This document shows, piece by piece, positions 4,304 to 26,849 of a DNA stretch of 64,000 bases. The translations under genes and the position numbers were made by a program. The DNA is from an uncultured bacterium. GTDB taxonomy: Bacteria; Patescibacteriota; Minisyncoccia; Phycocordibacterales; PALSA-1337. The stretch is taken from contig CAIQCJ010000002.1 of NCBI GenBank assembly GCA_903870315.1, positions 4,820 to 68,819 on the forward strand, written 5' to 3'. Numbering within the stretch: position 1 is the first letter of the stretch; each line of letters starts with the position of its first letter. The notes beneath the pieces were generated by a model. The model did no database searches. It saw only the letters and a program-made list of their open reading frames with translations, and was not told where the DNA came from.

Positions 4304-4307
4304 AGCT

Positions 4308-4817: not shown

Positions 4818-5254
4818 GTGCAATAGGAAATATAAAACTGAAAATTATTGATCATCTTAACGCTCTCAAAACTGCGGGAACATTGGGGCAGGTAATTGTC
4901 GAACAGGCGGGAGCGCAAAACATGTTCGACAGAGATCTTCTTGTGTACCCGAGCGCGATTCTGCTTCCCGGCACAGCCGAAGGAAACGTCGAATCAAATC
5001 AAGACAACTTATATCTCTACTCGTTTGACATTGTGGTCGTTATGAAAAATGACAACATCACCGGACAAACGGCAGTAGAAGATTTACTCGAAGCTGTAGT
5101 TCAAGAATTCAACAAAGATTTTACTCTTGGCGGAACAGCAGTCGGAGCAGTCGATCCGACATCGTCATCGCCGGCGGCCATCGAATCAAGCGGACAGACA
5201 TATACAGTATTCGTGGTTACGCTCAAGGCGAAAACATTACTCACGTTCAACTAA
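4814..5254 (+). CDS. Phage tail component (hypothetical; tail completion/terminator slot)
   Basis: 146 aa ORF, ATGA-type overlap with the upstream gene. Position only. Confidence 0.3.
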   Translation: MSAIGNIKLKIIDHLNALKTAGTLGQVIVEQAGAQNMFDRDLLVYPSAILLPGTAEGNVESNQDNLYLYSFDIVVVMKNDNITGQTAVEDLLEAVVQEFNKDFTLGGTAVGAVDPTSSSPAAIESSGQTYTVFVVTLKAKTLLTFN

Positions 5255-5268
5255 AAACATGATCGAAA

Positions 5269-5441
5269 AAGCAAACATTACCAAAGACATGTCTTCACCC
5301 GTCAAAGAGTATCACTTTGCCGGAAGCGGAAAATATTATCCTCTCACTGTTACTGCCAAAAGCAGAGAGGAAGCCGAGAAGATATGGATCGAGAAAAGGC
5401 AGGAAGTAAAGGTCGAGGAAACAAATAATCAAACACAATAA
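5269..5441 (+). CDS. Small hypothetical phage protein (57 aa)
   Basis: ATG at 5269 (MIEKANITKD...) in frame with the tail of ORF 5127..5441. Fills the gap before the major tail gene. Confidence 0.25.
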
Positions 5442-5443
5442 TT

Positions 5444-6433: not shown

Positions 6434-6451
6434 TAGAAGTAATTAACATTT

Positions 6452-6778
6452 ATGGAAGAAAGAGAAACAAAAAATATCACAACGCCGAGTAATCACGTAA
6501 TAGTCCTCAAAACTTATCTCACTGGTAGGGAAGTGAACGATATTAAACGCACACTTTTCGGATCGGTATCAGTCGAGCGAGGAGAAGATGGTAAACCGGT
6601 CATTCCGGAATATCCGCTCTCTTTGGCAATTGACCGAGAGAAGAAACTTCTCGAATACACGGTGATCTCGATTGACGGCGTCAAAGAAAATGCCGCTGAC
6701 AAAGTTCAAGATCTGGTTGCGGGGGACTACAAGTTCGTAGTTGCGGAAGCTGAAAAAGCGGTAGATGGAAATTTTTAG
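6452..6778 (+). CDS. Tail assembly chaperone (G product)
   Basis: 108 aa ORF directly upstream of tape measure gene. Ends in slippery heptamer plus stop. See frameshift feature. Confidence 0.55.
   Translation: MEERETKNITTPSNHVIVLKTYLTGREVNDIKRTLFGSVSVERGEDGKPVIPEYPLSLAIDREKKLLEYTVISIDGVKENAADKVQDLVAGDYKFVVAEAEKAVDGNF
6769..6775 (+). promoter_or_regulatory. -1 programmed ribosomal frameshift slippery heptamer A_AAT_TTT at the end of the chaperone gene
   Basis: Zero-frame codons gga aat ttt tag, so heptamer AAATTTT (X_XXY_YYZ) sits directly on the stop codon. The -1 frame is open for 68 further codons. Confidence 0.55.
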
Positions 6779-6984
6779 AGGGCGAAGTTGAGGCGGCATG
6801 GGTCAGATACTTCGCCTTTGGAAATCTCGAATTCCCCGATGAAATGACGGTAGCGATTCTTTGCAGAGAAATGGGCTGGACATGGAATGAGCTTCAGAAT
6901 CAGCCGATCTGGTTTGTGAAAAATCTCATGGCATATCTTAGCGCTGAATCAGATCACATAAAAAAGCAGCAAAAAAATAAATGA
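6775..6984 (+). CDS. Tail assembly chaperone -1 frame extension (T part of G-T fusion)
   Basis: -1 frame reads LEGEVEAAWVRYFAFGNLEFPDEMTVAILCREMGWTWNELQNQPIWFVKNLMAYLSAESDHIKKQQKNK* with no internal stop and no ATG start. Terminates in ATGA overlap with tape measure start at 6981. Confidence 0.5.
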   Translation, partial: LEGEVEAAWVRYFAFGNLEFPDEMTVAILCREMGWTWNELQNQPIWFVKNLMAYLSAESDHIKKQQKNK

Positions 6985-8861: not shown

Positions 8862-8862
8862 C

Positions 8863-10293
8863 ATGCTTCAAATTAAACGAAACACAAGTACGGATATAAG
8901 CGCAGGAGTTCAGTGGAAAACTGTTCAGATCACTGAGGTGCTGACTAAAGAAGTGAGTAAGTTGCAATTCACGATTTATAAAACACCGGCGACCACATCA
9001 ATGATTCCGGTTGTTGGTGATCAGATTGATGTGTACGAAAATAGTGTTCATATTTTTGGTGGCACATGCACGAATGTCGAGATTACTATCCAAGGCGGAG
9101 TGCTACTTGCGTATCAGATATCTTGTGTTGATTGGAGCTACAAACTAAACAGCATACTTGTGACGAAAACATACTCCGCAATGGATCCGGCCGACATTGT
9201 CGCGGATATTGTCGCAAACTTTGTACCGGCAAGTCTGGGATTTACTCAAGCTCACGTGGTTCGTGGAGGTTTCCAAGTTGCATCAATTAAATTCAAGTAT
9301 GAGCAGGTAACTCAAGCATTGGAAAAGTTAGCAAAACAAATTGGATGGGAATGGTACGTTGATCCATCAAAAGATATTCATTTCTTCCTCGTGCAAAATA
9401 ATCCTGCGCCTTTCAACATCGATGAGACTTCAGGAAAGATTGAATGGCCGTCGCTTGATGTTCAGGTGGATCTCACCAATATGAAAAATAGTGTCTACGT
9501 CGTCGGCGGAAATTATCTAAAAACATTTACTGCGTTAACTGCCGTTGATGTTTATCAGACAGACGGAGTAAAAACGGTGTTTGGTTTGGCTTATGCCTAT
9601 GACCAGACAGGCTTCACAGTAACCCTAGACGGAACAACTCAAACAGTCGGAATTGATCAGCAAACTGATCCAACTACAGTGCAATGGCTCTATAGTGCAT
9701 CGGGCAGATTTGTCCGATCAACAAGTACTGTAGCAACTGGTCATACACTAAAAATATTTGGTAATGCACAGATTCCTATTCTTGCCCATGCTCAAAACTC
9801 TTCAGCAATTGCACAATACGGAGAAAATCAGGATTCAGTCATCGACAGGCAGATACGATCGGTAGCGGAAGCTCAGCAACGAGCGCTCGCTGAGATTCTT
9901 CAGTTCGGACATCCAGTCTATGACGTTAAATTCAAAACAATTCAAACGGGGCTTGTGATCGGGCAGACGATACTGCTAAACAGCTCAAAGCTAGGCATTA
10001 CAAATTATCCGCTTGTGATCAAGCGAATCGAAGGAACCGGATACAGTCCAAGCCAGTTCGAATACCAAGTCGAAGCGCTAGGATCCGACAACGTAACATT
10101 TGTCGACATTATGAGCAGACTTCTTACTCAAGAAAATAACAACACCGATACTTCAGACAACTCAGTAATTGAAGGACTTCTGGCTTTTGCTGAAGGCTTC
10201 ACGTTCTCCGATGCTCTGACAGCCACGCCAACAACAGGTCCATATAAATGGGGTCAATCTAATACAAAGTGGGGCTTCTTTACTTGGGCATAA
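8863..10293 (+). CDS. Phage distal tail / baseplate-like protein
   Basis: 476 aa ORF immediately after TMP (1-nt spacing). Position-based call. Confidence 0.4.
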   Translation: MLQIKRNTSTDISAGVQWKTVQITEVLTKEVSKLQFTIYKTPATTSMIPVVGDQIDVYENSVHIFGGTCTNVEITIQGGVLLAYQISCVDWSYKLNSILVTKTYSAMDPADIVADIVANFVPASLGFTQAHVVRGGFQVASIKFKYEQVTQALEKLAKQIGWEWYVDPSKDIHFFLVQNNPAPFNIDETSGKIEWPSLDVQVDLTNMKNSVYVVGGNYLKTFTALTAVDVYQTDGVKTVFGLAYAYDQTGFTVTLDGTTQTVGIDQQTDPTTVQWLYSASGRFVRSTSTVATGHTLKIFGNAQIPILAHAQNSSAIAQYGENQDSVIDRQIRSVAEAQQRALAEILQFGHPVYDVKFKTIQTGLVIGQTILLNSSKLGITNYPLVIKRIEGTGYSPSQFEYQVEALGSDNVTFVDIMSRLLTQENNNTDTSDNSVIEGLLAFAEGFTFSDALTATPTTGPYKWGQSNTKWGFFTWA

Positions 10294-10299
10294 AACATT

Positions 10300-10818
10300 A
10301 TGAAAGAATTAATCAAAAAATTATTCGGAATAAAAGACAGTGCATCAATGCAGGGGATTATTAAAATCCGAGCATATAAAGCTGGCACTAAGGAATTGGT
10401 TCGGGAGATTGTGTGCAAAAACACTATCATGCAAGCAGCGAATATTGGCAAAGATTTGATCGTGCAGAAACTCATTGCAACAGCAACAGGAATTGATCCG
10501 TACACATTGCACATTACATATGGAGCTATTGGCACAAGTCAAACAGCACCAACAACAGCAGATACTCGACTTGGCGCGGAATCAGCTAGGGTCGCAATTA
10601 CATTCGGACAAGATAGCGGATACAACATCGCAGTCATGCAGTTTTTCTTTCCAGATTCTTCGCTAACAAACCAAACATACTATGAATTTGGAACTTTTGT
10701 TGACGGAACATCTACTCCAAATAGTGGACAGCTTTTCAATCATGCACTTTTCGGAGTGCCTTATTCCAAATCGGCCGGTATTGATACCACGATCGAGGTC
10801 GATATAACTCTTACTTAA
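10300..10818 (+). CDS. Phage tail protein (hypothetical)
   Basis: 172 aa ORF in tail module. No motif recognised. Confidence 0.3.
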   Translation: MKELIKKLFGIKDSASMQGIIKIRAYKAGTKELVREIVCKNTIMQAANIGKDLIVQKLIATATGIDPYTLHITYGAIGTSQTAPTTADTRLGAESARVAITFGQDSGYNIAVMQFFFPDSSLTNQTYYEFGTFVDGTSTPNSGQLFNHALFGVPYSKSAGIDTTIEVDITLT

Positions 10819-10823
10819 AAAAT

Positions 10824-11816
10824 ATGATATCAACAGGACAACAAGCACTCGCATCCGACTTCATCGCTACTTCCGCAGGCGCGGGAAGCAGTGGTCAGGT
10901 TCCGAAATGCAATTCACTCGGAAAGATAGATAACTCTTTTCTTCCAATTAAATTCGGCGGTACCGGAGCGGATGGTGTGCTTTCAATCACATCGGGTACG
11001 ACAACAATAAGCGCCGGAAGTGCAAGTGTTCTTGTTAAAAATTACACATCCATATCGATCACAGGAACTGGAAAACTCGCATTTTCAAATCCCGGATCAA
11101 ATGGAACTTTAATATTTCTAAAATCGCAAGGAAACGTAACACTCACGTCATCAACCGCTCCAATGATTGATGCCTCTAATATGGGAGGTCCGGCAGGAAC
11201 GGCTGGATATTATGGCGATGGAACTAGCCCAACACAAGGAGCGGGCGGAAACTTTTATAGCGGTGGATCATGGGGACAAGGCGGTGGTGGTGGAGGTGGA
11301 GGTGGCGCACTTTCAGGTGGTGGCACTGGTTACTACAGTGGAAGTGTGCCTGCTGCCGGTGGAGGAACGACTGGTCTGAAAAGTATTCTCGCATCTTACG
11401 CTTACGCAAAAGGGACGAAACTCGTGACAGGTGCAGGCGGTGGTACAGGAAACAACGGAGCAGGTTATGGTGCATCAGGTGGTGCAGGTGGAGTCGGAGG
11501 CGGATGTTTGGTAATTGAATGCGCCGGTTATTTAAATTTCACAACAGCAAACGGAATTTCTGCCGCAGGATCGAATGGTGGAAACGGAACATCAAGTGGT
11601 AATGGAAATGGATTCGATGGTGGTGGGGGTGGTGGAGGCGGAGGTGGAACTGTAATTCTTTTATACAACCTTCTTACAGCAAATTCAGGAACAGTAAATG
11701 TTAATGGCGGAAACGGCGGGAACGGAGGTACTGGCGGAACTGGAAGTCCTGCCGGTTCAGGTGGTGGCGGGGGTAGCGGCTTGTCATTAGTAGCTCAAAA
11801 TACAGAATTTACATAA
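10824..11816 (+). CDS. Glycine-rich tail fibre-like protein with poly-Gly tracts
   Basis: 330 aa, runs of 8-10 Gly (GGGGGGGGG) and GxG repeats. Last gene of the tail module. Confidence 0.4.
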   Translation: MISTGQQALASDFIATSAGAGSSGQVPKCNSLGKIDNSFLPIKFGGTGADGVLSITSGTTTISAGSASVLVKNYTSISITGTGKLAFSNPGSNGTLIFLKSQGNVTLTSSTAPMIDASNMGGPAGTAGYYGDGTSPTQGAGGNFYSGGSWGQGGGGGGGGGALSGGGTGYYSGSVPAAGGGTTGLKSILASYAYAKGTKLVTGAGGGTGNNGAGYGASGGAGGVGGGCLVIECAGYLNFTTANGISAAGSNGGNGTSSGNGNGFDGGGGGGGGGGTVILLYNLLTANSGTVNVNGGNGGNGGTGGTGSPAGSGGGGGSGLSLVAQNTEFT

Positions 11817-11824
11817 AAAATATT

Positions 11825-11998
11825 ATGCAAGAACAAGAACAAAAACCAAATATTATTCACGAATTGAAATGCGGTATATGTGGAAAAGTCTGCGGAACGA
11901 TTACGTTTCCGTCAGAATCTGAAGTGGATCTAGATGAGGTCTCTGCTGGCCACGAAACATTATGTGATGAACATTCACCAAAAAATCCCGATGAATGA
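11825..11998 (+). CDS. Small Cys-rich (CxxC ... CDEH) hypothetical protein, possible zinc ribbon
   Basis: ATG at 11825. MQEQEQKPNIIHELKCGICGKVCGTITFPSESEVDLDEVSAGHETLCDEHSPKNPDE. Below ORF-track length cut-off. Stop overlaps next start. Confidence 0.25.
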   Translation: MQEQEQKPNIIHELKCGICGKVCGTITFPSESEVDLDEVSAGHETLCDEHSPKNPDE

Positions 11999-12203
11999 AA
12001 ACCCTATTGAAAAAAGAATAGAGACTATTGAATCCGAAATAAAGCAGATCAAGGAAAATCACTTGGCACACATCAAGGAAATTTTGGCTGTGGTAAAAAC
12101 CAATCAGGAATGGATAATGCGATTTTTTTGGATTCTTACATCCGCTTCGGTCGCAGGACTAATTACTGGAATTATAAATTTATTAATCAAAACAAAAATA
12201 TGA
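11991..12203 (+). CDS. Putative holin-like small membrane protein (single C-terminal TM)
   Basis: MNENPIEKRIETIESEIKQIKENHL... then hydrophobic FFWILTSASVAGLITGIINLLI segment. Immediately upstream of, and overlapping, the endolysin gene. Confidence 0.3.
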   Translation: MNENPIEKRIETIESEIKQIKENHLAHIKEILAVVKTNQEWIMRFFWILTSASVAGLITGIINLLIKTKI

Positions 12204-13258
12204 ATGAACAATCAATTGCAACCGGAGCTTTAATATCTCCGCATGACTATAGGGACGGATATGCGTCAGCGGCAGTTGCAGAACAAATTTCTACACAAAT
12301 TAATCTGCCGGTATCTTACAAAACAATTCTCGCATCTCCGATGATGCAAGCGTTGGAGCCAGCATGCGTGTCGCACAGTGTTGTCGACAACCTAAAACTT
12401 TACTGGTTTAGAAAAACAGGGAAGTGGATTGACTTCTCTCCGAGATTTCTCGATATCCTCGCTAAAAGATTTGATGGTCAGGATCGTGCGACAGGCGGTA
12501 CGTATCCTCGTCTCGTATTCAAGCTCGCAGTTTTGTACGGATGTGCCACAACAGCGACACTACCGAACGACACATCGCTGTCAGTCTTGAATTATCGTGA
12601 TGATAGCAAGCTCACTCCTGAAGTATTCGCTGAAGCTAGTCAGTATAAGATTCCCGGCTACGTTTCTGTACCGCTCGATTTTCAAGGAACACGTCAATCA
12701 ATCTATTTATACGGAGCGATTTCGACACTCTTTCAAGTTGGTGATGAATTATGGACTCCATCATGGGCAGACAAGGACATTGACCCATTACGTCCGCCAA
12801 AAGTTATCCTTTCAGGGCATCAAATGTCGCCATTCGGATGGGAAGACAACGTGTACAACGATCTCCAAAATGAATGGAGCGATAAATGGGCAAATAAAGG
12901 ACAGGATCGCTATGATCCAAAAGCATGGTCGCCATACATCATCGAACAGTGGGCAGTCGCAGAAATTCCTCAAGATGTTCAGGACTTTTTGAAAGCTTTG
13001 CCCGCTCCAAATAATTTTCATTACAGTTGGCAAAGAGATCTTGCACTTGGCGACAATAACGATGATGTCAAATTCGCGCAGATCGCATTTATGATCCTAG
13101 GATTTCTCGCACCAATTCCTGCTAATGAGCTCGGCATCTTCGGTCCGAAAACTGCCGCAGCAAACGCTAAGTATCAGCAAGCACATAAGATCGCACCGGC
13201 ACCGAATCATATAGGTCCGCAAACGCGCGCGGCATTAAACGCACAATTTGCGATCTAG
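12200..13258 (+). CDS. Endolysin: N-terminal hydrolase domain (possibly Cys-peptidase-like) plus C-terminal peptidoglycan-binding domain (PG_binding_1-like)
   Basis: C-terminus DDVKFAQIAFMILGFLAPIPANELGIFGPKTAAANAKYQQAHKIAPAPNHIGPQTRAALN fits the G..V..lQ..L...G(x)FG..T..A...(Y/F)Q...G..G..T...L PG-binding pattern. Located between two holin-like genes. Confidence 0.5.
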   Translation: MNEQSIATGALISPHDYRDGYASAAVAEQISTQINLPVSYKTILASPMMQALEPACVSHSVVDNLKLYWFRKTGKWIDFSPRFLDILAKRFDGQDRATGGTYPRLVFKLAVLYGCATTATLPNDTSLSVLNYRDDSKLTPEVFAEASQYKIPGYVSVPLDFQGTRQSIYLYGAISTLFQVGDELWTPSWADKDIDPLRPPKVILSGHQMSPFGWEDNVYNDLQNEWSDKWANKGQDRYDPKAWSPYIIEQWAVAEIPQDVQDFLKALPAPNNFHYSWQRDLALGDNNDDVKFAQIAFMILGFLAPIPANELGIFGPKTAAANAKYQQAHKIAPAPNHIGPQTRAALNAQFAI

Positions 13259-13579: not shown

Positions 13580-13608
13580 CTAGGTTGTTAGAAATTAACA
13601 GTAAAAAC

Positions 13609-14691
13609 ATGGAAGACAACAGCCGAAAATTTGATCACAGAATTAAAAATCCTGAGCCTCATATCGTCGCTTTTTTGGCAGCGATAGATGAAATTCGTGG
13701 AGCTTTTCGCGTTGGTCTTCGCATGACTCCTCAAGCGATCACCAATCTGCACAAATCCGTACTCGTGACATCAGCTGGTGCTTCTACACGTATTGAAGGT
13801 GCAAAACTTTCTGACGAAGAAGTAAAGAAAATCATGGAAGGATTCTCAATCCAAAAATTCTCCGATCGTGATTCACAGGAAGTGCAGGGCTATCTTGAAA
13901 CGCTCAAAAATGTTTTCGACAATTATAAAGACTTGCCATTGCGAGAAAGCATAATTACTTCGCTCCACAAAGAGCTTCTAAAATATTCAAACAAGGACGA
14001 CTTACATCGTGGAGAATACAAGCATAAGGAAAATCTAGTCGGCGTTCTCGATGCCAAAGGAAATGTGGCAAAGATCATGTTTGAAACAACCCCAGCATAT
14101 CTCACACAAAAAGAGATGACTGAGCTTGTTGAATGGACACAGGAAGCACTAGAGAAAGAACGCTTCCATCCACTTCTAGTGATCGCCAATTTCCTTATTG
14201 AATTCCTGAAAATACACCCATTTGAAGACGGAAATGGTCGTATTTCGCGTGTTCTCACGAACTTACTACTTCTTCGACAAGGCTATTCATTTGCACAATA
14301 CGTCTCGCATGAGCAGATCATAGAGCAACGCAAGGATCAATACTATCTTGCTCTCCGATCATCGCAGGCGACATTTAGAAGTCAAACCAAGCCGGAAGGA
14401 CAAGAAGAAACGATCACACCTTGGCTCAACTTCTTCTTTTCAGTTGTGAAAGAACAGGCAGACAAGTCAATCGTGCTTGTAGAAGAAGAAACACACGAAG
14501 ACATAATGTCTCCAAAGCAAAACGAAGTCTTGGAATATCTCTCAAAGGTAAAAGAAGCTGGTCCAGCCGAGATTGTCAGAGAAACTGGAATTATTATGCC
14601 ATCGGTTCGTAAATCACTTGAACGGCTTGTCGAGCTTGGCAAAGTAAAAAGAATTGGTCGAGGCAGAGCAACGAGGTACGTAAAAATATAA
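13609..14691 (+). CDS. Fic family protein (Fic/Doc AMPylation-type domain) with C-terminal winged-helix-like region
   Basis: Canonical Fic motif HPFEDGNGRISR. ORF-track start 13585 is TTG; ATG (MEDNSRKF) at 13609 chosen. Confidence 0.8.
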   Translation: MEDNSRKFDHRIKNPEPHIVAFLAAIDEIRGAFRVGLRMTPQAITNLHKSVLVTSAGASTRIEGAKLSDEEVKKIMEGFSIQKFSDRDSQEVQGYLETLKNVFDNYKDLPLRESIITSLHKELLKYSNKDDLHRGEYKHKENLVGVLDAKGNVAKIMFETTPAYLTQKEMTELVEWTQEALEKERFHPLLVIANFLIEFLKIHPFEDGNGRISRVLTNLLLLRQGYSFAQYVSHEQIIEQRKDQYYLALRSSQATFRSQTKPEGQEETITPWLNFFFSVVKEQADKSIVLVEEETHEDIMSPKQNEVLEYLSKVKEAGPAEIVRETGIIMPSVRKSLERLVELGKVKRIGRGRATRYVKI

Positions 14692-14695
14692 AATT

Positions 14696-16636
14696 ATGAA
14701 AAATAGTACAAAAAAAATTAATCTAACATCATCAAATCTCAGTGAAGAAAAGCTTTATGATCTGAAAAAAATATTGCCAGAAGTATTTAGTGAAAATAAA
14801 ATTGATTGGGACAAATTAAAAACTGTCCTTGGCGACAACATTGATCCTCGACTTGAAAAATTCGGGCTTTCTTGGGCTGGAAAAAATAATGCCATACGTA
14901 GCGTTATAGTTCCAAGCAGTTCGACACTTCGTCCAGACACAAAGGCAAGCGTAAATTTCAACGTGACAGAAAATCTATTCATTGAGGGTGATAACCTAGA
15001 AGTTTTGAAACTTTTACAAAAGGCGTATTTTGAAAAAGTAAAAGTTATATACGTAGATCCTCCATATAACACTGGATCAGATTTTGTTTATAAAGATGAT
15101 TTTAAATCTCCAATCAAGGCATACCTTGAGCAGACAGGCCAAGTAACCAATGATGGACAGAGGCTTCAAACAAACAAAGAGACGAACGGACGATATCATA
15201 GTGATTGGCTTTCAATGATGTATCCTCGACTTAAATTAGCGTGGAATCTCCTAAGAGAAGATGGAATAATTTTTGTAAGTATTGATGACAATGAGGTCAA
15301 TCATTTACGATTAATCATGGATGAAATATTTGGCGAGGAAAACTATTTGAATGCGTTTTGTTGGGTTAATAATCTAAAGGGTCGTCAAATATCTGGATCA
15401 GGAGCGGCGAAAACATATGAATATGTATTGGCATATGCTAAGAAAATTGAAAATGTTGGAATATTTGAGATGTCTGTTGAGAAATTAAAAGCTTTGATGC
15501 CTAGTAGTTACAAAGGATTTAATTATGAGACTGAAAATGACGAGGGTGGAGACTTTGTTGTAAAAAATGAACTTTATAATACAAACTCTGCTTTCAACGA
15601 AGAAACTCGTCCTAGTTTGGTTTACAATATTCACTATAATTTCAAAACAAAAGAGGTAAAGTTTTCTAGTATTAAAGAAGATGTTGATTTTGCCGGCTTT
15701 ACGAAAATTACACCAAAGAAAAACAACAATGGGAGACACAAATATCATGCTTGGAGATGGAGCAAAGACAAGGTTGCTAATGAATTAGCTGATTTAAAAT
15801 TTGTCGAAACAAAAGAGGGTGCAAAGATCTATACAAAGATCCGTGAATATACAAGCACTGCATTAAAAGACATAATCACTGATATTACAACAAGTAATGG
15901 AGCGAGCGATATTAAAGAATTATTTAATGGTGCAAAATACTTTGACTATCCAAAGCCTGTTGATTTACTAAAAGTATTTATCAGCCAAATGGGGACCGAG
16001 GGTATTGTTTTGGACTTCTTCGCGGGTTCTGGTACAACAGCCCATGCGGTGATGAGTCTTAATGCTGAAGATGGTGGAAGTAGAAAATTTGTCTTGGTTC
16101 AACTACCTGAAAGTACTAATAAAGAAAGCGAGGCGTATAAGGATGGATACAAAACTATAGCAGATATTGCCATAGAGCGTATTCGTCGCGCAGCAAAAAA
16201 ACTGTCAGACAAAACGGGTTTCAAGGTATTTAGACTGGGAGCTTCTAACTATCCAGAAAATAACTTTGAGTTTGATCCAGATAAAAGCGAGGATGAAAAT
16301 AAAAAAGCTTTTACATCCTATCTTGTAAAAGCAAAACAAAGTTCGCTATTTGATGATGAAAATGGTCTAGATGTTGTGTATGAAAATATTGTAAAAGAAG
16401 GTTTTTCGCTGAACTCTGTAATAGAGGAAAGAAAACTTGGCAAAAATAATCTTTACATCGTGAAGGACGGTGAACGCAAAATTCATATTTGTCTAGATAA
16501 AACAGTTGACAAAGATACGATCAAAGAACTCTCTGATCGCAATTACAAAGATTCAGTATTTATATGTATTGATAATGCTTTGGATGACACGGGGAAGGCG
16601 AACCTGGGTCTTAATCTAGAACTTAAAACTATTTAA
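14696..16636 (+). CDS. mod: Type III restriction-modification system methyltransferase (Mod, beta-class N6A/N4C MTase)
   Basis: Motif IV DPPY (KVIYVDPPYNTGSDF) precedes motif I FxGxG (VLDFFAGSGTTAHAV), i.e. beta-class order typical of Type III Mod. Immediately followed by res. Confidence 0.85.
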   Translation: MKNSTKKINLTSSNLSEEKLYDLKKILPEVFSENKIDWDKLKTVLGDNIDPRLEKFGLSWAGKNNAIRSVIVPSSSTLRPDTKASVNFNVTENLFIEGDNLEVLKLLQKAYFEKVKVIYVDPPYNTGSDFVYKDDFKSPIKAYLEQTGQVTNDGQRLQTNKETNGRYHSDWLSMMYPRLKLAWNLLREDGIIFVSIDDNEVNHLRLIMDEIFGEENYLNAFCWVNNLKGRQISGSGAAKTYEYVLAYAKKIENVGIFEMSVEKLKALMPSSYKGFNYETENDEGGDFVVKNELYNTNSAFNEETRPSLVYNIHYNFKTKEVKFSSIKEDVDFAGFTKITPKKNNNGRHKYHAWRWSKDKVANELADLKFVETKEGAKIYTKIREYTSTALKDIITDITTSNGASDIKELFNGAKYFDYPKPVDLLKVFISQMGTEGIVLDFFAGSGTTAHAVMSLNAEDGGSRKFVLVQLPESTNKESEAYKDGYKTIADIAIERIRRAAKKLSDKTGFKVFRLGASNYPENNFEFDPDKSEDENKKAFTSYLVKAKQSSLFDDENGLDVVYENIVKEGFSLNSVIEERKLGKNNLYIVKDGERKIHICLDKTVDKDTIKELSDRNYKDSVFICIDNALDDTGKANLGLNLELKTI

Positions 16637-16639
16637 TTT

Positions 16640-19258
16640 ATGAAGCTTAAATTTGACGCAAATCAAGATTTTCAGATCGATGCGATAAATGCGATCGCTG
16701 ATCTTTTTGAAGGTCAAAGCAAGACAGCAAGTAAAATGATAGCTGGTAGTGGGCTTCTTGGTATTTATCCAAATATTCTCACTCTTACAAAAGAGGAGAT
16801 ATTAATAAATACGGCTAAAGTTCAGGATCATAATGGGATCTTGAATGGTGGTTTGGTAAAAGATTTAGATTTCTCTATTGAAATGGAAACTGGTACGGGT
16901 AAAACTTATGTCTATATACGAACCATTTTTGAATTAAATAGAAAATATGGTTGGAAAAAGTTTATTATTCTTGTGCCTTCAGTTGCAATTCGCGAAGGAG
17001 TCATAAAGACACTTAAAATAACTAAGGATCATTTTGCTGATCTTTACGATAATGTTCCATATCGTTTTTATGAGTATCAGTCAAAAAATATTTCTCAGGT
17101 TAAACATTTTGCAGATAGTAGTAATATCGAAATAATGGTTATGACGATTGGAGCTTTCAACAAAGACACGAATGTTCTATATAGTGAGCGAGATCAAATG
17201 CATGGTGAACAACCGATTAGCTATATTCAAAAGACTAACCCTATTTTAATTTTGGATGAACCTCAAAATATGGAGGGAGATTCGACAAAAAAGGCGATCG
17301 ATAATTTTAATTCAATATTTCGTTTGCGATATTCTGCAACACACAAGAATTTGTACAACCTAGTCTATCAACTTGCTCCATATGATGCCTATCAACTCGG
17401 ACTAGTTAAAAAGATAGAAGTATTTTCTGTTGTTGATCAAGACGATGCAACATCAGCCCCACTAATAAATTTAATTGAAGTTAAACCTAGTAAGACTGCC
17501 CTCAAAGCTCAAGTGGAGATAATATCAAAAGACGATCAGGGTGAAGGAAAGAAAAAAAAGATCAGCGTAAAACAGGGTGATGACCTAGCAAAAAAGACCA
17601 ACAATGCAACATATGAAGGTTATGTTATTGAAGAACTCACAGCTGACGCTCCAGATTTTGGCTCAATCGGCTCTATTCGCTTTAGAAATAATATACAGAT
17701 TAAGAAGGGCGAAGGTATTGGTGGAAATCGTGAAGACATAATGAAAGAGCAGATTACTGAAACAATCAAATTGCATTTTGAAAAGAAGAAAAAACTTAGA
17801 GAGTTTGGAATTAAAGTTCTTTCATTATTTTTTATTGATCGTGTTGATAATTATGTGAAAGACGATGGTTTTATCAGACAAACATTCATAAAGCAATTCA
17901 ATATTCTTAAAAAAGAATACGGTGAAAGTGGCGCAAACGTAAATACTGTCCATAAGGGATACTTTGCAATGAAGAATGCAAATGAGTACATTGAGCGTGA
18001 ATCTGCAATAGCTGAAAACAAAGAGGCTTACGAACTGATAATGAAAGACAAGGAAAGATTACTTTCTTTTGAGGAACCAACAGAATTTATCTTTTCACAC
18101 TCTGCACTTAAGGAAGGTTGGGACAATCCAAATATTTTTAATATTTGCACACTTAATCTTACATCTTCGACGATGAAAAAACGTCAAGAAATTGGTCGAG
18201 GTATGCGACTCTGCGTTAATCAGGATGGAGAACGAATCTTCTTAAAAAATATTAATCTTTTGTCAGTGATTGCAAACGAGAGTTACTCCAGCTATGTCGC
18301 AGGCCTTCAGTCTGAGTTTGTTGATGATGGTATATACAAAGCACCGCCATTACCATACAACGCAAAAAGAAAAATCACAGTTAAACTCAAAAGAGGATTC
18401 AATACTGACGAAAATTTCAAAGCAATATGGGATCGTATATCAAAAAAGACAAAATACGTAGTTCGAGTTGATTCTGGCCGTGTTCTTGAGCGAGCAATAA
18501 AAAGAATCAATGAATTAAAGATACTTAAACCTCAAATTAAAATTGAGCGTGCAGGAATATCTATTGCACAGGAGGGTATCGCGGCAAGTATAATAGGCGG
18601 TCAATCTTTTGAACTTACACAAAACAAGCGTACGATTGATTGCGTTGGACTTATTAAAAGTGAGACAAAACTCACAAGAGACACAGTGGCAACAATTTTA
18701 GAAAAGTCTAAAAACCTTAAATCTTTCTTCAATAATCCTGAGAAATTTATTTATGAGGTGACGAAAATAATAAAAGAAGAATTGGTACATGATTATATTG
18801 AGCAGATAAGCTATGAAATTATTCCTGAAAAATACAATGTGGATCAATTTGAAAATATTTCAAGCTATGTTGATGCGACAGAGCCAGTTAAACACTCAAT
18901 CTATGAAGCCATTGTCTATGATTCCGAAGTTGAACAACAATTTGCAGTAGATCTTGATCAGGATGAAAGAATTAAATTATTTATAAAACTTCCAGCTTGG
19001 TTCAAGGTTGAAACACCGGTGGGAACATATAACCCAGACTGGGCTATTGTAACAGCAAAAAGAGATCTGCAAGGGAAGGAGGATCATGAAAAAGTCTATT
19101 TTATAATTGAGACAAAGGGCGGTACAAACCTGAGATCGTCCGAACGTGCAAAGATAGATTCAGCCAAGAAGCACTTTGAAGTGATCTCGGTTAACTATAA
19201 AGAGATCAACAAAGGCTATAAACAATTTAATCAGGAATGCTTGATTAATAAGCAATAA
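16640..19258 (+). CDS. res: Type III restriction enzyme Res subunit (SF2 helicase plus C-terminal PD-(D/E)xK endonuclease)
   Basis: Walker A METGTGKTYV, motif II ILDEPQNM, C-terminal YNPDWAIV ... IIETKG nuclease motif. 3-nt spacing after mod. Confidence 0.85.
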   Translation: MKLKFDANQDFQIDAINAIADLFEGQSKTASKMIAGSGLLGIYPNILTLTKEEILINTAKVQDHNGILNGGLVKDLDFSIEMETGTGKTYVYIRTIFELNRKYGWKKFIILVPSVAIREGVIKTLKITKDHFADLYDNVPYRFYEYQSKNISQVKHFADSSNIEIMVMTIGAFNKDTNVLYSERDQMHGEQPISYIQKTNPILILDEPQNMEGDSTKKAIDNFNSIFRLRYSATHKNLYNLVYQLAPYDAYQLGLVKKIEVFSVVDQDDATSAPLINLIEVKPSKTALKAQVEIISKDDQGEGKKKKISVKQGDDLAKKTNNATYEGYVIEELTADAPDFGSIGSIRFRNNIQIKKGEGIGGNREDIMKEQITETIKLHFEKKKKLREFGIKVLSLFFIDRVDNYVKDDGFIRQTFIKQFNILKKEYGESGANVNTVHKGYFAMKNANEYIERESAIAENKEAYELIMKDKERLLSFEEPTEFIFSHSALKEGWDNPNIFNICTLNLTSSTMKKRQEIGRGMRLCVNQDGERIFLKNINLLSVIANESYSSYVAGLQSEFVDDGIYKAPPLPYNAKRKITVKLKRGFNTDENFKAIWDRISKKTKYVVRVDSGRVLERAIKRINELKILKPQIKIERAGISIAQEGIAASIIGGQSFELTQNKRTIDCVGLIKSETKLTRDTVATILEKSKNLKSFFNNPEKFIYEVTKIIKEELVHDYIEQISYEIIPEKYNVDQFENISSYVDATEPVKHSIYEAIVYDSEVEQQFAVDLDQDERIKLFIKLPAWFKVETPVGTYNPDWAIVTAKRDLQGKEDHEKVYFIIETKGGTNLRSSERAKIDSAKKHFEVISVNYKEINKGYKQFNQECLINKQ

Positions 19259-19262
19259 ATTT

Positions 19263-20429
19263 ATGAAAGAAAGAATTAAGGATACAATACAAGACTGTAA
19301 CATCAATTTCCTGATTGGATCCGGACTTTCTTCTCCGTTCTTAAAAACACTCGGAAATATCGAAATACTACTTACAAAATTAGATGACCAAAATATTACT
19401 GACACAGAAAAGAAAGTGATTCGAGCATCACTCTACAAAAAATTTTTTGAAGATGCGATCCTTAAAAATCCCAAGATATTAGAGTCAGATATTGATGCTA
19501 ATTCTGCACTGAAGCATTATCACGACTTTCTGAAGTCAATTAACTCAATTCTTCTTAGACGTAAAAGTACGATATTAAGTAAGGAAGTTAATTTATTTAC
19601 TACCAACTTCGATATTTTTTTAGATAAAGCTCTCGAAGATGTATCAGTTGAATACAACGATGGATTCAATGGTCGATTTCTCCCTCAATTTAGTCTAACC
19701 AACTTCAAAAAATCAAGGTTTAAAAAGAGCCTGCATTATGACAACATATCAGAAATACCTGTATTTAATTTGCTTAAATTACATGGATCACTTTCTTGGA
19801 AACTGATTGATAAAACGGAAAATAGTGAAATAGTATTTTCTTCTGACTTGTCCAATCTTAAGGATATACAAAGTAAGATACCGAGCATGGAACACCTGAT
19901 TGATGTTCAAGCTGACTCAACAGTAGAGACCCTAGTAAATGCTGTCCCGGGCAAAGTCCTTGATCCATCAGTTCAAACCTTTATGGAAGCATATGAAAAG
20001 CTCTCGATTGTAAATCCTAATAAAGATAAGTTCCGTCACACACTACTTAATCAGACTTACTACGAAATGCTTAGGATATATTCGAATGAATTGGAAAAAG
20101 AAAATACCGTTTTGTTTGTCATGGGTTTTTCTTTTGCAGACGAGCATATCCGTGAAATTACACTTCGCGCAGCCAATTCTAACCCGACAATGATGATCTA
20201 TATATTTGCATATAGCTCAAAGAGTAAAGCGGACATTCAATCTAAATTCGATTCAAAAAATATAAAAAATAAGAATATTGTAATTGTCGGTCCAGAAACT
20301 AAAGAGGACGGTGATGACAAATTTAAATACGACCTAGAGACAATTAACGCCCAAATTTTTGATTGTCTTCTTGAAAAAGAGGATACAAAAGAGTCGGCAA
20401 CATCAGATGTGCCTAAGGAGGCTAAATAA
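19263..20429 (+). CDS. SIR2-like (SIR2_2 family) NADase-type defense protein
   Basis: NFLIGSGLSSPF (GxGxS N-terminal block), TTNFD, KLHGSLSW and VMGFSFADEHI blocks characteristic of defense-associated SIR2-like domains. Directly upstream of HerA-like ATPase. Confidence 0.7.
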   Translation: MKERIKDTIQDCNINFLIGSGLSSPFLKTLGNIEILLTKLDDQNITDTEKKVIRASLYKKFFEDAILKNPKILESDIDANSALKHYHDFLKSINSILLRRKSTILSKEVNLFTTNFDIFLDKALEDVSVEYNDGFNGRFLPQFSLTNFKKSRFKKSLHYDNISEIPVFNLLKLHGSLSWKLIDKTENSEIVFSSDLSNLKDIQSKIPSMEHLIDVQADSTVETLVNAVPGKVLDPSVQTFMEAYEKLSIVNPNKDKFRHTLLNQTYYEMLRIYSNELEKENTVLFVMGFSFADEHIREITLRAANSNPTMMIYIFAYSSKSKADIQSKFDSKNIKNKNIVIVGPETKEDGDDKFKYDLETINAQIFDCLLEKEDTKESATSDVPKEAK

Positions 20430-20433
20430 TTTT

Positions 20434-22335
20434 ATGAATAATGATTCAATCGCAGAAGACGCAATTTTCAAAATAGGAAAGGTCATCTCGGTTGATGGCA
20501 GGACAATTAGAGTTGGCATAGATAAAACTAAAAATTCTTCGCATCTTGTATACAAAGGTGAGCTTCTAAAAAATATTTCGGTGGGTGGTTACATAAAAAT
20601 TATTAAGGGGTTCACAAAAATAATTGGCAAGGTTGAGGGAGAATTTATTAATGAAGATAAACAGTTCGGTAAAAAGGGTTATGGTAGCGAGAAGGAAAAG
20701 ATCAATAGAGTCTTGAGCGTCAGTCTACTCGGTTTTTTTAGAGGTAGTCACTTTGAGAGAGGTATTAAAGAATTGCCACTTATTGATAATGAATGCTTTT
20801 TACTTCACAACAGAGAATTTGATCAAGTACATAATTTCATCAAAGATAATGATGATCCTATTACAATTGGTGCATTAGCATTAGAAAAAGGTCAGTCAAT
20901 AAAAGTCGGTATAAATAGTTTATTTGCTAGTCATATTGGAATATTTGGTAACACTGGTAGCGGAAAATCTTACACTCTTGCAAAAATTTATCGTGAACTT
21001 TTTGAGAAATATAAGAATGAAATAAAATTCAAGAGAAATGCTAGGTTTTTTCTGATTGATTTTAACGGAGAATATATAGACACATCTTCGAGAAGTGATA
21101 GTGTAATCATTGATAAAAAATATAAAAGCACCTATAAATTGTCTACTAGAAATGACAAGGGTGACAAGTACCCGATTCCAATAGATGCAATAAGAGAAGC
21201 TGAATTCTGGGTTATTTTTCTTCAGGCAACAGAAAAAACTCAAGCTCCGTTCTTAAAGAGGGCTGTTGAGAGTGTTTATCTTCAGGGCAAGATACAAGTT
21301 GAATCAGATTTAAAAGACATGATCGCAAAGATGATTTTTACTGCGACAACTGATGGTGATAAGACCTTGGAGAAAACAGTCGTAATGAATCTTCTTGAAG
21401 AAATAAAGGATTGCTTGGGGGGTAATACAACAATAGATGATCTTATTTCAGACTATCGCCTCAATCTGCATTATCATAGTAAAAATAATAAATATTACTA
21501 CGGCACTGATTCAGCCACCGCAATGTATAGCGACAATGCTTCATACAAGCAAACTGTTGTTGACGATAAAATTAATACGCTTTCCATAAACACGAAACAA
21601 ATATCTCCTATTGATGAAGTTAGACTTCAAATTGTGATTCAGTACTATGAAGACATAATTAGAGGTTTTTCAAACAAGGAACATCTCTCTCCACTGCTCA
21701 AACGATTAGATAAAAGAGTGGATCATTTAAAGAAGGTGATCAACGTCATAAATGACGCTGAAACCCCAATGCCAAAGCAGAAAAATCTTATTATTGTATC
21801 TCTAAAAGATGTAAATATTCAGATAAGAAAGATCATCCCGATGCTTTTATGTAGAAAGCTGTATAATGATAAAAAAGAAAGTAACAATGATCAGACATAT
21901 CTCAATCTTATAGTTGATGAGGCACACAATATTTTGTCTGAAAATTCAGAAAGGGAAAGTGAGCAATGGAAAGATTACCGCCTTGAGACATTCGAGGAAA
22001 TTATTAAGGAAGGTCGAAAGTTTGGTGTTTTCTTAACAATTGCAAGTCAACGTCCATCGGATATTTCACCAACGATCATATCTCAATTACATAATTACTT
22101 TTTACATAGATTGATAAATAATGAGGATATACGAGCAGTAGAAAAAACAATTTCATATCTCGATAAAGTATCTTTTGAATACCTTCCAATTCTTCCTACG
22201 GGTACATGTATAGTTGCTGGACTTTTGGCAAATGTGCCAGTAGTGGTTGATATTGGTAGAATTATTCCACCTAAGCACGAACCAAAAAATAAGACTCGCA
22301 CGCTTATTGATAAATGGAAAACAAATAAAAAATAA
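20434..22335 (+). CDS. HerA/FtsK-like ATPase (SIR2-HerA partner)
   Basis: ATG at 20434 preceded by aaggagg RBS. N-terminal barrel-like KIGKVISVDGRTIRVG. Walker A GIFGNTGSGKSYTL, Walker B LNLIVDEAHNIL. Confidence 0.7.
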   Translation: MNNDSIAEDAIFKIGKVISVDGRTIRVGIDKTKNSSHLVYKGELLKNISVGGYIKIIKGFTKIIGKVEGEFINEDKQFGKKGYGSEKEKINRVLSVSLLGFFRGSHFERGIKELPLIDNECFLLHNREFDQVHNFIKDNDDPITIGALALEKGQSIKVGINSLFASHIGIFGNTGSGKSYTLAKIYRELFEKYKNEIKFKRNARFFLIDFNGEYIDTSSRSDSVIIDKKYKSTYKLSTRNDKGDKYPIPIDAIREAEFWVIFLQATEKTQAPFLKRAVESVYLQGKIQVESDLKDMIAKMIFTATTDGDKTLEKTVVMNLLEEIKDCLGGNTTIDDLISDYRLNLHYHSKNNKYYYGTDSATAMYSDNASYKQTVVDDKINTLSINTKQISPIDEVRLQIVIQYYEDIIRGFSNKEHLSPLLKRLDKRVDHLKKVINVINDAETPMPKQKNLIIVSLKDVNIQIRKIIPMLLCRKLYNDKKESNNDQTYLNLIVDEAHNILSENSERESEQWKDYRLETFEEIIKEGRKFGVFLTIASQRPSDISPTIISQLHNYFLHRLINNEDIRAVEKTISYLDKVSFEYLPILPTGTCIVAGLLANVPVVVDIGRIIPPKHEPKNKTRTLIDKWKTNKK

Positions 22336-22339: not shown

Positions 22340-23092
22340 ATGTCAGAATATTACAACGCCAACAGAACAAGAAACATCTACGATCCAGAAAGTCCGGAAC
22401 CTTTTAAGTTGTCACGATCAAAAATCGAGCTCTATATGAAATGCCCGAAATGCTTCTATATGGATCGCAGACTTGGTGTTGGACAGCCACCGGGCTTCCC
22501 GTTTGCCCTAAATTCGGCCGTAGATGCCCTCCTAAAGAAAGAATTCGACATACATAGAGCTAAGAAGACTCCTCATCCGCTTATGAAGGCGTACGGCCTT
22601 GATATGGTCCCTTTTGCACACGAGAAGATGGGAGAGTGGCGAGAGAATTTCAAAGGGGTCCAGTATCACCATGAAGCTACAAATTTCATTATGACCGGAG
22701 CTGTGGACGACTTGTGGGTGAATGGGGAAGGGGAAATCACTGTTGTTGATTACAAATCAACAAGTAAACCTGCAAAAGTAACTCTAGATGCTGACTGGCA
22801 GATTGGATACAAGCGTCAGATGGAAATGTATCAATGGTTACTACGCAAGCTAGGCTTCAAAGTGTCAAATACTGGTTATTTTGTATATTGTAATGGAAAA
22901 ACTGATCGCACAGCATTTGATGGAAAACTAGAATTTGATATTGATTTATTACCCTACACTGGAAGTGACTCGTGGGTCGGCGGAGTCCTCCATGAGATCA
23001 AGCAGTGTCTTGATGGCGAAATGCCAGATTCGAGTCATGATTGCGACTTCTGTAATTTTAGAAAAGCCGCAAATGCAGTTGATAAAAAATAA
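22340..23092 (+). CDS. PD-(D/E)XK nuclease, Cas4/RecB-like with Cys cluster
   Basis: N-terminal CPKC, core GAVDDLWV ... EITVVDYKS (D ... E-x-K), C-terminal HDCDFCNF Cys cluster. ATG at 22340 (MSEYY) chosen over upstream in-frame start. Confidence 0.5.
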   Translation: MSEYYNANRTRNIYDPESPEPFKLSRSKIELYMKCPKCFYMDRRLGVGQPPGFPFALNSAVDALLKKEFDIHRAKKTPHPLMKAYGLDMVPFAHEKMGEWRENFKGVQYHHEATNFIMTGAVDDLWVNGEGEITVVDYKSTSKPAKVTLDADWQIGYKRQMEMYQWLLRKLGFKVSNTGYFVYCNGKTDRTAFDGKLEFDIDLLPYTGSDSWVGGVLHEIKQCLDGEMPDSSHDCDFCNFRKAANAVDKK

Positions 23093-23134: not shown

Positions 23135-23743
23135 ATGGATCAAATTATCTACATTTTAATAAACGAAGCGATGCCCGGATATGTAAAAGTTGGTAAGACT
23201 ACAGATTTAGAGCAAAGGGTCCGCGATCTATCGCGTGCTTCAGGAGTTCCTCTTCCTTTTGAAGTTTTTTATGCTGCAAAAGTGAAAGACATGCATGAAG
23301 CTGAAAAATTAATACATGATGCCTTTGGAGATACACGCGTAGCTCCGAACCGAGAATTTTTTAAGATTGCTCCAGAAAGAATTGTGGCGGCCTTAAAATT
23401 GGCTCAATTAGAAAATGTAACCCCACATAGCGACTTCGTTGATTCTCCTGAAGAACAAAAAGCTCTAGATAACGCTAGGAAGAATCGGGCAAAATTTAAT
23501 TTTGAAATGGTAAAAATAATGCCGGGTAGTATTTTAACTTTCACTCGAAATCCAGAGATAACATGTAAGGTTATCAATGACACACAAATTGAATATAATG
23601 GGGAAATAAAAAGTCTTTCTGAGGCGGCAAAACTAGCTCTTGGGATTGATTACCAAGTGGCCGGGACATTGTACTGGGAATATGATGGGGAGACATTGGA
23701 TGAACGCCGAAGGCGCTTCGAAGAAGGTAACGATCAAGAATAA
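23135..23743 (+). CDS. T5orf172 (GIY-YIG-like) domain protein with DUF4357-like C-terminus
   Basis: IYILINEAMPGYVKVGKTTDLEQRVRDL ... FEVFYAAKVKDMHEAEKLIHDAF ... NREFFKI matches the T5orf172 pattern. Confidence 0.5.
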   Translation: MDQIIYILINEAMPGYVKVGKTTDLEQRVRDLSRASGVPLPFEVFYAAKVKDMHEAEKLIHDAFGDTRVAPNREFFKIAPERIVAALKLAQLENVTPHSDFVDSPEEQKALDNARKNRAKFNFEMVKIMPGSILTFTRNPEITCKVINDTQIEYNGEIKSLSEAAKLALGIDYQVAGTLYWEYDGETLDERRRRFEEGNDQE

Positions 23744-25422: not shown

Positions 25423-26367
25423 ATGTTACTTCGAGATGCAATCGAAAAATATTTGCTCTGGAAGGGTACTGAGACTCGTGTAGCAGCTAAAGTCTACAGA
25501 CCATTCCTTGAGCATTTCTACACCTACGTTGGCAACAGAGATACCCTCGACATAACCCTTGAGGACATCTCCGGATTCCGAGCATCGTTGCGATTAAAAT
25601 ACAACGATGGCAACATTGCGAACCATAACAATGTGATCAAGAATTTCTACAAATGGCTTGAAGCACTCAGGGCAACAACTGTACATCCATTCCTGATACG
25701 CAACCCAAGATTCCAAGCTCCTGAGAGACCGGTAGCGACACCGGACGAGGTTAAAAGAATGTGCGCTACCCTTAATGAGAATTCCTACGGGGATCTTATA
25801 AGACTTATTGCGATCAGACTCATGTGGGAGTCGATGATCAGGGTAAGCGAGCTTGTGGACCTAAATATTAACGACATCGTGTCGCAAAAGAATTACACAG
25901 AAATTGTAGGTAAGAAAAATTATAAGAAACGATGGATTATGTGGTCGCCAGAAACCCATCAACTCCTGCTAACGTATGTCACCAAGCGAAAAGCGTATCT
26001 TGATCACGAAGCATTGTTCGCTCATGAGAAAGGCGGTGTAGCACAAAGAATGAATACTAGAAGCGTTGAGCGATGGTTAAAAATTGCTCGAGAAAAAGCG
26101 GGTATTGAAAAAGAAATATCTTGTCACGCATTGAGACATGGCGGAGCGCACGAGCTGGTCAAGAAAGGTGCGAGCCTAAAATTCATTGGATTGATCCTCG
26201 GACACTCAGATAACAACCCTCGAGCCGGCATGCAATATCTACGATTCAGTAAGGAGGAATCCCTAGATGTAGTAAACAAATTTGTGGGACTAAGATTCAA
26301 TCCGAATGAAATTCCGCCTCAATTAGAGCCTTTAGTCGGAGCGTATGGAGCTTACAGCATGGCGTGA
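25423..26367 (+). CDS. int: Tyrosine-type phage integrase / site-specific recombinase
   Basis: C-terminal catalytic region HALRHGGAHELV ... LGH ... MQYL (R, HxxR, Y). N-terminal SAM-like core-binding region. Confidence 0.85.
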   Translation: MLLRDAIEKYLLWKGTETRVAAKVYRPFLEHFYTYVGNRDTLDITLEDISGFRASLRLKYNDGNIANHNNVIKNFYKWLEALRATTVHPFLIRNPRFQAPERPVATPDEVKRMCATLNENSYGDLIRLIAIRLMWESMIRVSELVDLNINDIVSQKNYTEIVGKKNYKKRWIMWSPETHQLLLTYVTKRKAYLDHEALFAHEKGGVAQRMNTRSVERWLKIAREKAGIEKEISCHALRHGGAHELVKKGASLKFIGLILGHSDNNPRAGMQYLRFSKEESLDVVNKFVGLRFNPNEIPPQLEPLVGAYGAYSMA

Positions 26368-26628: not shown

Positions 26629-26849
26629 AAGGCCTAGGCGGGCTCAAAAGAGTAATCCACTTGTCGCACTTGCTATATGTTGTGGGATGTTTATACTTAA
26701 TGGTGTGATCATTGAAAACTAGATTCTCCACGAAACTTCGGGTGATAGGGGAACTTTTATAGCCGCTTCGAGCGGCATTACAAATACGACACTATGTCGC
26801 ACAATATATCTTTTGCGAAGTGATAAGATATGAAAAAACCGATTATATC

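Follow-up and report, generated by a model that had tools for sequence, protein, structure and literature searches.

A prophage-borne SIR2-HerA gene pair of the Nezha type in an exchangeable defence cassette of a probable Patescibacteria host

In the SIR2-HerA (Nezha) systems studied so far, a SIR2 dodecamer and a HerA hexamer form a complex of about 1 MDa that switches on NADase, ATPase and DNA-directed activities, and mutating the catalytic residues of either one abolishes protection (PMC11472057, PMC11514289). Infected cells are depleted of NAD+ and the infection is abortive (bioRxiv 10.1101/2021.12.14.472415), and in an E. coli subtype phage proteins of the single-stranded DNA-binding (SSB) type and DNA ends act via an ATP checkpoint (PMC13434337). 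Here we analyse a pair of adjacent genes at positions 19263-22335 of a 64-kb stretch of contig CAIQCJ010000002.1 from an uncultured bacterium (the whole stretch is called the window below), which a first-pass annotation had read as a SIR2-HerA system carried as prophage cargo in a bacterium resembling the candidate phyla radiation (CPR). Our results indicate that the pair is very probably a canonical two-gene abortive-infection system of the Nezha type, with the mechanism and the cassette and prophage context that we describe. It shares with the solved systems of E. coli (8J4U, 8SU9), Paenibacillus sp. 453MF (8WLD) and S. aureus (8YHX) the gene order, SIR2 then HerA, a SIR2_2 protein with TTNxD and KxHGS motifs, and a HerA with an N-terminal barrel, Walker A and B motifs and an SQRPS motif. 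It differs from them in forming a separate lineage (PDLC04080, PDLC04097) with thousands of environmental members.

The product of the upstream gene is matched by the PADLOC-DB models for the SIR2 of SIR2-HerA systems (best PDLC04080, E=4.4e-62), and SIR2_2 (PF13289, E=4e-13) is the only Pfam family listed for it, the canonical sirtuin family PF02146 not being among its matches. The sequence blocks that had suggested a defence-type SIR2 were all found at the expected places, with GSGLS, the NAD loop, at residues 19-23, TTNFD at 113-117, KLHGSLSW at 172-179 and GFSFADEH at 288-295. In an alignment of 40 SIR2 sequences G19, G21, S23, N115, D117 and H174 are invariant, and both the catalytic Asn and the catalytic His are thus present and conserved throughout. 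The corresponding dyad of S. aureus Sir2 is N226/H287 (PMC11514289), with which N115/H174 align in the PDB sequence alignment, and the N163/D165/H212 used by the Paenibacillus SIR2 (PMC11472057) lie in the same TTNxD and KxHGS motifs as those of the window protein. The solved structures nearest to it in sequence all belong to SIR2-HerA complexes, namely the E. coli Nezha entries 8j4u_A/8su9 (E=9e-18), 8yhx_G from S. aureus and 8w9l_A from Paenibacillus.

The fold agrees with this assignment. We modelled the SIR2 monomer with AlphaFold2 from 40 homologues (predicted local distance difference test, pLDDT, 78; predicted template modelling score, pTM, 0.81) and searched the PDB with Foldseek. The top 36 matches were all SIR2 chains of SIR2-HerA entries, the best being 8suw_B (E=3.9e-13, template modelling score, TM, 0.59; range among the top matches 0.5-0.6), and ThsA and DSR2 ranked after them at about 1e-5. 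The SIR2 fold proposed in the first-pass annotation therefore holds. The model also places a helix at residues 2-11, the site of the HerA-binding alpha1 helix in homologues (PMC11472057).

The mechanically called open reading frame (ORF) of the downstream gene begins at a TTG at 20359, and the real start is the ATG at 20434, which gives the 633-aa product also found in public gene calls on identical contigs. The strong ribosome-binding site and the 4-nt gap reported earlier are both there: an AAGGAGG lies within the 3' end of sir2, 11 nt before this ATG, and the sir2 stop codon (20427-20429) is separated from it by TTTT. The protein matches the PADLOC HerA model PDLC04097 over its full length (E=2e-174), and Pfam finds the DUF87/HerA central domain (E=6e-20) plus HerA_C. 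For both proteins these profile matches go far beyond what chance would give. The Walker A GNTGSGKSYT (residues 172-181) and Walker B VDEAH (494-498) were found as first described, and 38 aligned HerA sequences show no or almost no variation at G172-S179, D495/E496 and R540 (at least 90% keep S176). Its best PDB sequence matches are defence HerA proteins, 8yho_A (S. aureus, E=4e-31), 8xau, 9c1m, 8wiv and 8j4u_M. The structural model is poor (pLDDT 63.5, below 50 in the C-terminal half), and is beta-rich over residues 13-123, where the barrel had been predicted. In the fold search, each of the 50 best matches of this low-confidence model is nevertheless a HerA, belonging to SIR2-HerA, DUF4297-HerA or HerA-NurA, and neither VirB4 nor FtsK appears among them.

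The pairing of the two genes is conserved well beyond this locus. Database searches returned more than 5,000 relatives of HerA (E<=1e-10) and more than 3,000 of SIR2 (E<=1e-5), the top ones 56-92% identical. We compared 75 related loci, 72 from metagenomes and three others. Upstream DNA of over 600 nt is available for 58 of them, and in 54 of these the gene immediately before HerA is SIR2, the median distance between the two being about 0 nt. The two-gene architecture is therefore borne out by PADLOC, PDB and fold matches as well as by this pairing. Four loci (L118:1-2004, L120:1-1268, L164 and L166) carry a HerA homologue (64-76% identity) with no detectable SIR2 upstream, and may be decayed systems or have a different partner. 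Relatives also occur on 630 plasmids, where the adjoining genes are annotated as "SIR2 family protein". The window pair is thus a member of a widespread, horizontally mobile lineage of a known system. A separate case of mobility is suggested by Edaphobacter albus (CP060393.1, L095:6847-14662), where a SIR2-HerA pair with a 65% identical HerA lies between an EcoRII/GmrSD/Vsr restriction cluster and conjugation genes of the TrwC/TraG type, an arrangement suggestive of carriage on an integrative conjugative element.

The family appears rare in sequenced phages. The 50,697 phage records of INPHARED gave no real SIR2-HerA matches, with only weak similarity to terminase large subunits in tblastn, and a scan of IMG/VR with the single HerA protein gave no relatives. 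An alignment-based scan of IMG/VR found only three distant SIR2-HerA loci on viral contigs. In one of them (UViG_3300000351_000079, L171:7111-11491) the pair directly adjoins a homologue of the Gabija protein GajA (PADLOC E=6e-168), a further example of stacked defence genes on a putative phage.

The mechanism that we propose follows that of the studied systems. SIR2 would form an auto-inhibited dodecamer, its N-terminal helix docking on the beta-barrel face of the HerA hexamer. Phage infection would activate the complex, for which phage SSB-type proteins, DNA ends and a drop in ATP are the triggers in the studied systems. Activated SIR2 (N115/D117/H174) would hydrolyse NAD+ to ADP-ribose and nicotinamide, HerA (K178, D495/E496) would hydrolyse ATP and act on DNA, and the infected cell would cease to grow before new phages are produced. 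Co-transcription and translational coupling probably join the pair to the type III restriction-modification (RM) genes upstream of it, as parts of one horizontally acquired 7.6-kb cassette. Placed in the cargo region of a temperate phage in a Patescibacteria host, this cassette would protect the lysogen against other phages. The two proteins retain every residue needed for the mechanism of their homologues, and we infer complex assembly, NADase activity, trigger and protective phenotype by analogy with these.

Several observations weigh against this interpretation. Identity to the solved systems is low, about 20% for SIR2 and 15-21% for HerA, and the trigger and the exact activities of HerA may therefore differ from those described. 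Such differences have precedents, since equally diverged E. coli subtypes differ in their activities (nickase or helicase/nuclease) and in their triggers (PMC13434337). The fold match of HerA, obtained with a poor model, would by itself be weak evidence and serves here only as support. A promoter and terminator scan of the window gave fewer promoter-like sites than shuffled sequence. Finally, one may question whether a CPR cell with a reduced metabolism tolerates, or benefits from, suicide by NAD+ depletion.

Table 1. Features of the window around the SIR2-HerA pair, with their coordinates and the evidence for each.
Feature	Coordinates	Strand	Evidence
Prophage structural and lysis module	1..13258	+	Pfam Phage_capsid, Phage_connect_1, Phage_tube_2, PG_binding_1
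Capsid	1844-3043	+	Pfam Phage_capsid
Tail tube	5444-6433	+	Pfam Phage_tube_2
Peptidoglycan-binding lysin	12110-13258	+	Pfam PG_binding_1
Fic-domain protein (SoFic-like), constant left flank, ends 4 nt before Mod	13585..14691	+	PADLOC SoFic E=3.7e-43
Cargo cassette Mod-Res-SIR2-HerA, 7.6 kb, low GC	14696..22335	+	blastn against sibling L185, GC
Type III RM methyltransferase (Mod), first cassette gene	14696..16636	+	PADLOC MTase_III E=2.5e-169
Type III restriction enzyme (Res), ends 4 nt before sir2	16640..19258	+	PADLOC REase_III E=1.5e-248; Pfam ResIII, RE_endonuc
SIR2 (predicted NADase effector of SIR2_2 type), 388 aa	19263..20429	+	PADLOC, Pfam, PDB, fold matches, alignment
AAGGAGG Shine-Dalgarno for herA, within sir2 3' end	20416..20422	+	Sequence
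HerA ATPase, 633 aa; N-terminal beta-barrel, Walker A G172-S179, Walker B D495/E496, conserved R540	20434..22335	+	PADLOC, Pfam, PDB, alignment, fold matches
Cas4-like PD-(D/E)XK nuclease, constant right flank, starts 4 nt after herA	22340..23092	+	Pfam PDDEXK_1 E=6e-16; PADLOC Cas4 E=2e-8
GIY-YIG/T5orf172 protein (candidate system PDC-S57), cargo region	23135..23743	+	PADLOC PDC-S57 E=1.6e-69; Pfam T5orf172
Tyrosine integrase	25423..26367	+	Pfam Phage_integrase E=7e-26
Right end of integrated element (attR junction); host from 26794	26793..26794		Empty-site contig L176

The pair lies within a run of six genes, encoding Fic, Mod, Res, SIR2, HerA and a PD-(D/E)XK nuclease, packed with gaps of 3-4 nt (Table 1). 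The unit in which the four central genes are exchanged is indicated by a sibling prophage (L175/L185) integrated at the same chromosomal site. Its identity to the window is about 99% on the side of the host genes, as far as 22333 at the stop codon of HerA, and 89% on the side of the tail genes, as far as 14698 at the start codon of Mod; in blastn of L185 against the window homology is lost at 14698 and regained at 22333. In place of Mod-Res-SIR2-HerA, the segment of the sibling between these points (L185:4989-12826, ENA ERZ19026949 scaffold_227) encodes three other proteins: a Mod of 700 aa (25% identical), another Res, of 963 aa, and a Ppl-like ATPase of 941 aa (PADLOC Ppl E=2.7e-17). The swapped segment of the window has a guanine-cytosine (GC) content of 0.34, against 0.415 for the Fic gene, 0.428 for the PD-(D/E)XK gene, 0.443 for the phage and 0.415 for the host. 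The breakpoints of the swap and the low GC make the 7.6-kb block, type III RM plus SIR2-HerA, the unit of acquisition.

The genes on either side of this block are shared by the two prophages. The Fic protein on the left is 98.6% identical in the sibling, and resembles SoFic, which is a single-gene defence system. The Cas4-like nuclease on the right is retained in L185 although SIR2-HerA has been replaced; it carries cysteine motifs at both its N- and C-terminus (CPKC ... CDFC). The place between these two genes looks like a slot for defence cassettes. We looked within the window for att-like direct repeats flanking the defence genes and found only short chance matches, which give no sign of the defence block being an integrative island of its own.

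The tight packing of the six genes raises the possibility that SIR2-HerA does not act alone but belongs to a larger, obligate system with the type III RM, the Cas4-like nuclease or both, for instance because DNA ends generated by the RM feed HerA, or because the nuclease acts as a third effector. The arrangement Mod-Res-SIR2-HerA-PD-(D/E)XK indeed recurs in L099 and, in a diverged form that includes Fic (69-92% aa identity) and is followed by cellular genes, in L147, and SIR2-HerA-PD-(D/E)XK is found with a different RM in L093 (metagenome-assembled genome, MAG, GCA_048500475.1, 850-kb GenBank contig). The RM and the second system were also exchanged together in L185, and DNA ends are reported to stimulate a SIR2-HerA ATPase (PMC13434337). 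Yet, most related loci lack an upstream type III RM, and a PD-(D/E)XK homologue follows HerA in only four of the 53 loci with enough downstream DNA, plus L097 (the arrangement being that of L093, L097, L099, L125 and L147). The nuclease, moreover, stays in place when the Ppl-like gene replaces SIR2-HerA, and SIR2-HerA pairs alone suffice for defence in studied systems (PMC11472057, PMC13434337). We thus consider an obligate larger system unlikely, and treat the RM and the nuclease as co-travelling neighbours rather than subunits. In particular, the nuclease was set aside as a third subunit, being kept when SIR2-HerA is swapped out and rare among relatives. It may be phage backbone or accessory, and its persistence beside the Ppl-like gene is the behaviour of a backbone gene. 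A DUF2779 protein that follows HerA in a Patescibacteria locus (L091) was considered as its equivalent and rejected, as the two have no significant similarity.

The claim that the canonical two-gene pair is prophage cargo stands, with phage genes upstream, an integrase downstream and an allele of the site that lacks the element. Besides the genes listed in Table 1, the module at the left of the window encodes a head-tail connector and large tail proteins, and a longer contig of the same sequence (L168) continues further upstream with a portal/Mu-F protein, DNA methylases, Rep_O-like genes and AAA_24 genes. Among the tail genes, an ORF at 10824-11816 (+) encodes a 330-aa protein with glycine-rich repeats of the GGxGGx type (repeat family D1, positions 11280-11768). 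At the other end of the element, an S49 (SppA-like) peptidase gene (23915-24793, +) lies near the integrase rather than near the head genes, and in L125 an S49 homologue (56% identity) again comes after the PD-(D/E)XK gene.

The right boundary is given by an empty site in another sample. Contig L176 has the same host genes but no prophage: it matches the window at 99.96% identity between 37850 and 26794, and past the latter point (L176:11119) it runs into genes for L27, L9, a CtpB-like protein, CorA, CysRS and DnaB. The place where homology stops marks the right-hand end of the element, and an allele without it means that the element is polymorphic. A further contig, L177, ends exactly at window position 26794. 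The junction between phage and host is present in contigs from many independent samples, and is therefore not an assembly chimera. Scans of the window for tRNA and Rfam families found nothing.

Polymorphism of this kind, with an alternative cargo in one prophage and an empty site in another sample, could also mean that the pair, although its sequence is intact, is passenger DNA that is silent or in decay. The genes themselves argue otherwise, as neither ORF is shortened by comparison with the family profiles, no catalytic residue has been lost, the ribosome-binding site is strong and the operon layout tight. In addition, identical proteins occur in at least 12-21 contigs of independent samples. 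We regard the passenger explanation as very unlikely.

Two further alternatives concern the identity of the single proteins, and both are extremely improbable. The upstream gene might encode a housekeeping deacetylase of the sirtuin type, or an ADP-ribosyltransferase, instead of an NADase effector, given that a Rossmann-type SIR2 fold with an Asn/His pair is common to all sirtuins; against this, PF13289 is its only listed Pfam family, its closest folds are defence SIR2s, it sits with HerA in a mobile low-GC cassette, and with just two cysteines it lacks the Cys4 zinc module of deacetylase sirtuins. The downstream gene might be the element's own translocating ATPase (VirB4/TraG/FtsK or packaging), next to an unrelated SIR2 by chance, since HerA, FtsK and VirB4 belong to one ATPase superfamily, AAA_22 and TrwB_AAD_bind give weak sub-threshold Pfam matches (the latter E=0.0033, 16.8 bits vs a cutoff of 20.5) and phage terminases resemble it faintly in tblastn, but this idea is effectively refuted by the full-length defence HerA profile, by best sequence and fold matches that are all HerA, by the conserved SIR2 partner, by the lack of type IV secretion system genes anywhere in the 64-kb window and by the prophage having its own portal and packaging region upstream.

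The canonical SIR2-HerA pair can be set against other systems that share one of its parts. DUF4297-HerA and the archaeal HerA-NurA have a homologous hexameric HerA ATPase (PDB matches 9c1m, 8ziq, 4d2i and 9x1l), but their partner is a nuclease, DUF4297 or NurA. The window HerA adjoins neither and is partnered by SIR2; the nuclease beside it is a Cas4-like PDDEXK_1 protein that is not conserved with HerA. Thoeris ThsA, DSR2 and SIR2-pAgo/SPARSA have the same SIR2 NADase effector fold and act through abortive infection by NAD+ depletion. The fold matches to ThsA and DSR2 are nevertheless far weaker (about 1e-5 vs 1e-13 for SIR2-HerA), and the window system has no SLOG domain, no C-terminal sensor domain of the DSR2 kind and no pAgo partner. 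Closer still, E. coli SIR2-HerA types I-III vary in trigger and in HerA activities (PMC13434337), and the window lineage may differ likewise.

The slot itself also has a counterpart elsewhere. The P2 and P4 cargo hotspots of E. coli are defence hotspots of prophages and satellites. The likeness is in having a slot between conserved phage genes that holds alternative defence cassettes in closely related prophages, and the differences are the Patescibacteria host and the flanks, which here are SoFic-like and Cas4-like genes. A further difference is that both alleles seen here pair a type III RM with an ATPase-based system.

A CPR/Patescibacteria host, as first suggested, is supported by the sequence of the chromosome next to the prophage. 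Genes from about 26.8 kb onwards are cellular (M23 peptidase, GluRS, MurG, FtsW, DnaK/DnaJ, RpoA, AlaRS and LeuRS), and we used alanyl-tRNA synthetase (AlaRS) as a single marker against one genome per GTDB species (185,579 species genomes). The five best matches (52-62% identity) are in MAGs labelled Saccharibacteria or Paceibacterota, the sixth and seventh (49-50%) in an unclassified "uncultured bacterium" and a Minisyncoccia MAG, and at 46-48% the labels Uhrbacteria, Peregrinibacteria and Kaiserbacteria are mixed with others. By this marker no close representative of the host is present among these species genomes. The host AlaRS (47921-49852, -) is short, with 643 aa, and seems to lack the extended C-terminal part that bacterial AlaRS typically have; its matches, from CPR MAGs and other sources, span residues 1-642, and the short form is thus common to them. 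In the LeuRS (56048-59056, -; 1002 aa), residues 440-539 match a NUDIX domain (Pfam E=1.4e-10). This stretch directly follows the editing domain and looks like a domain insertion.

The first-pass annotation went too far in expecting the locus to extend the host range of SIR2-HerA, as public Patescibacteria and Parcubacteria MAGs already encode homologues that are 62-72% identical. An NCBI MAG named "Patescibacteria group bacterium" has an adjacent pair (L091) with 72% identity in HerA and 64% in SIR2, and "Parcubacteria group bacterium ADurb.Bin192" has a SIR2 with 62%. The exact proteins of the window are already in NCBI, JGI and ENA, and surveys exist of the defence repertoires and the prophages of CPR (PMC12259885, PMC12911398, PMC13059738); our literature search found no publication naming SIR2-HerA in CPR. 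The pair is thus an ordinary member of a known, structurally characterised system, and what is mildly new is confined to the cassette slot in the prophage.

One may go further and propose that a temperate phage of Patescibacteria carries a dedicated slot for units that each join a type III RM to an ATPase-based abortive-infection system and are swapped whole. Such a unit would be a functionally coupled two-layer module, and possibly this would be the first record of prophages shuffling defence cassettes in CPR. This larger claim we find doubtful and put forward tentatively. If it were true, the slot would suggest a succession of restriction first and NAD+-depleting suicide second, and the depletion would act in cells with a minimal cofactor metabolism.

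The gene pair in itself matters little, as SIR2-HerA is well characterised and very widespread. What modest value it has lies in its setting, where three alleles coexist in one population, a lysogen with RM and SIR2-HerA, a lysogen with another RM and a Ppl-like ATPase, and an empty site, and together they make a clean natural example. They indicate that CPR temperate phages carry multi-system defence cassettes and exchange them at precise gene boundaries, which bears on how ultra-small, CRISPR-poor bacteria acquire immunity.

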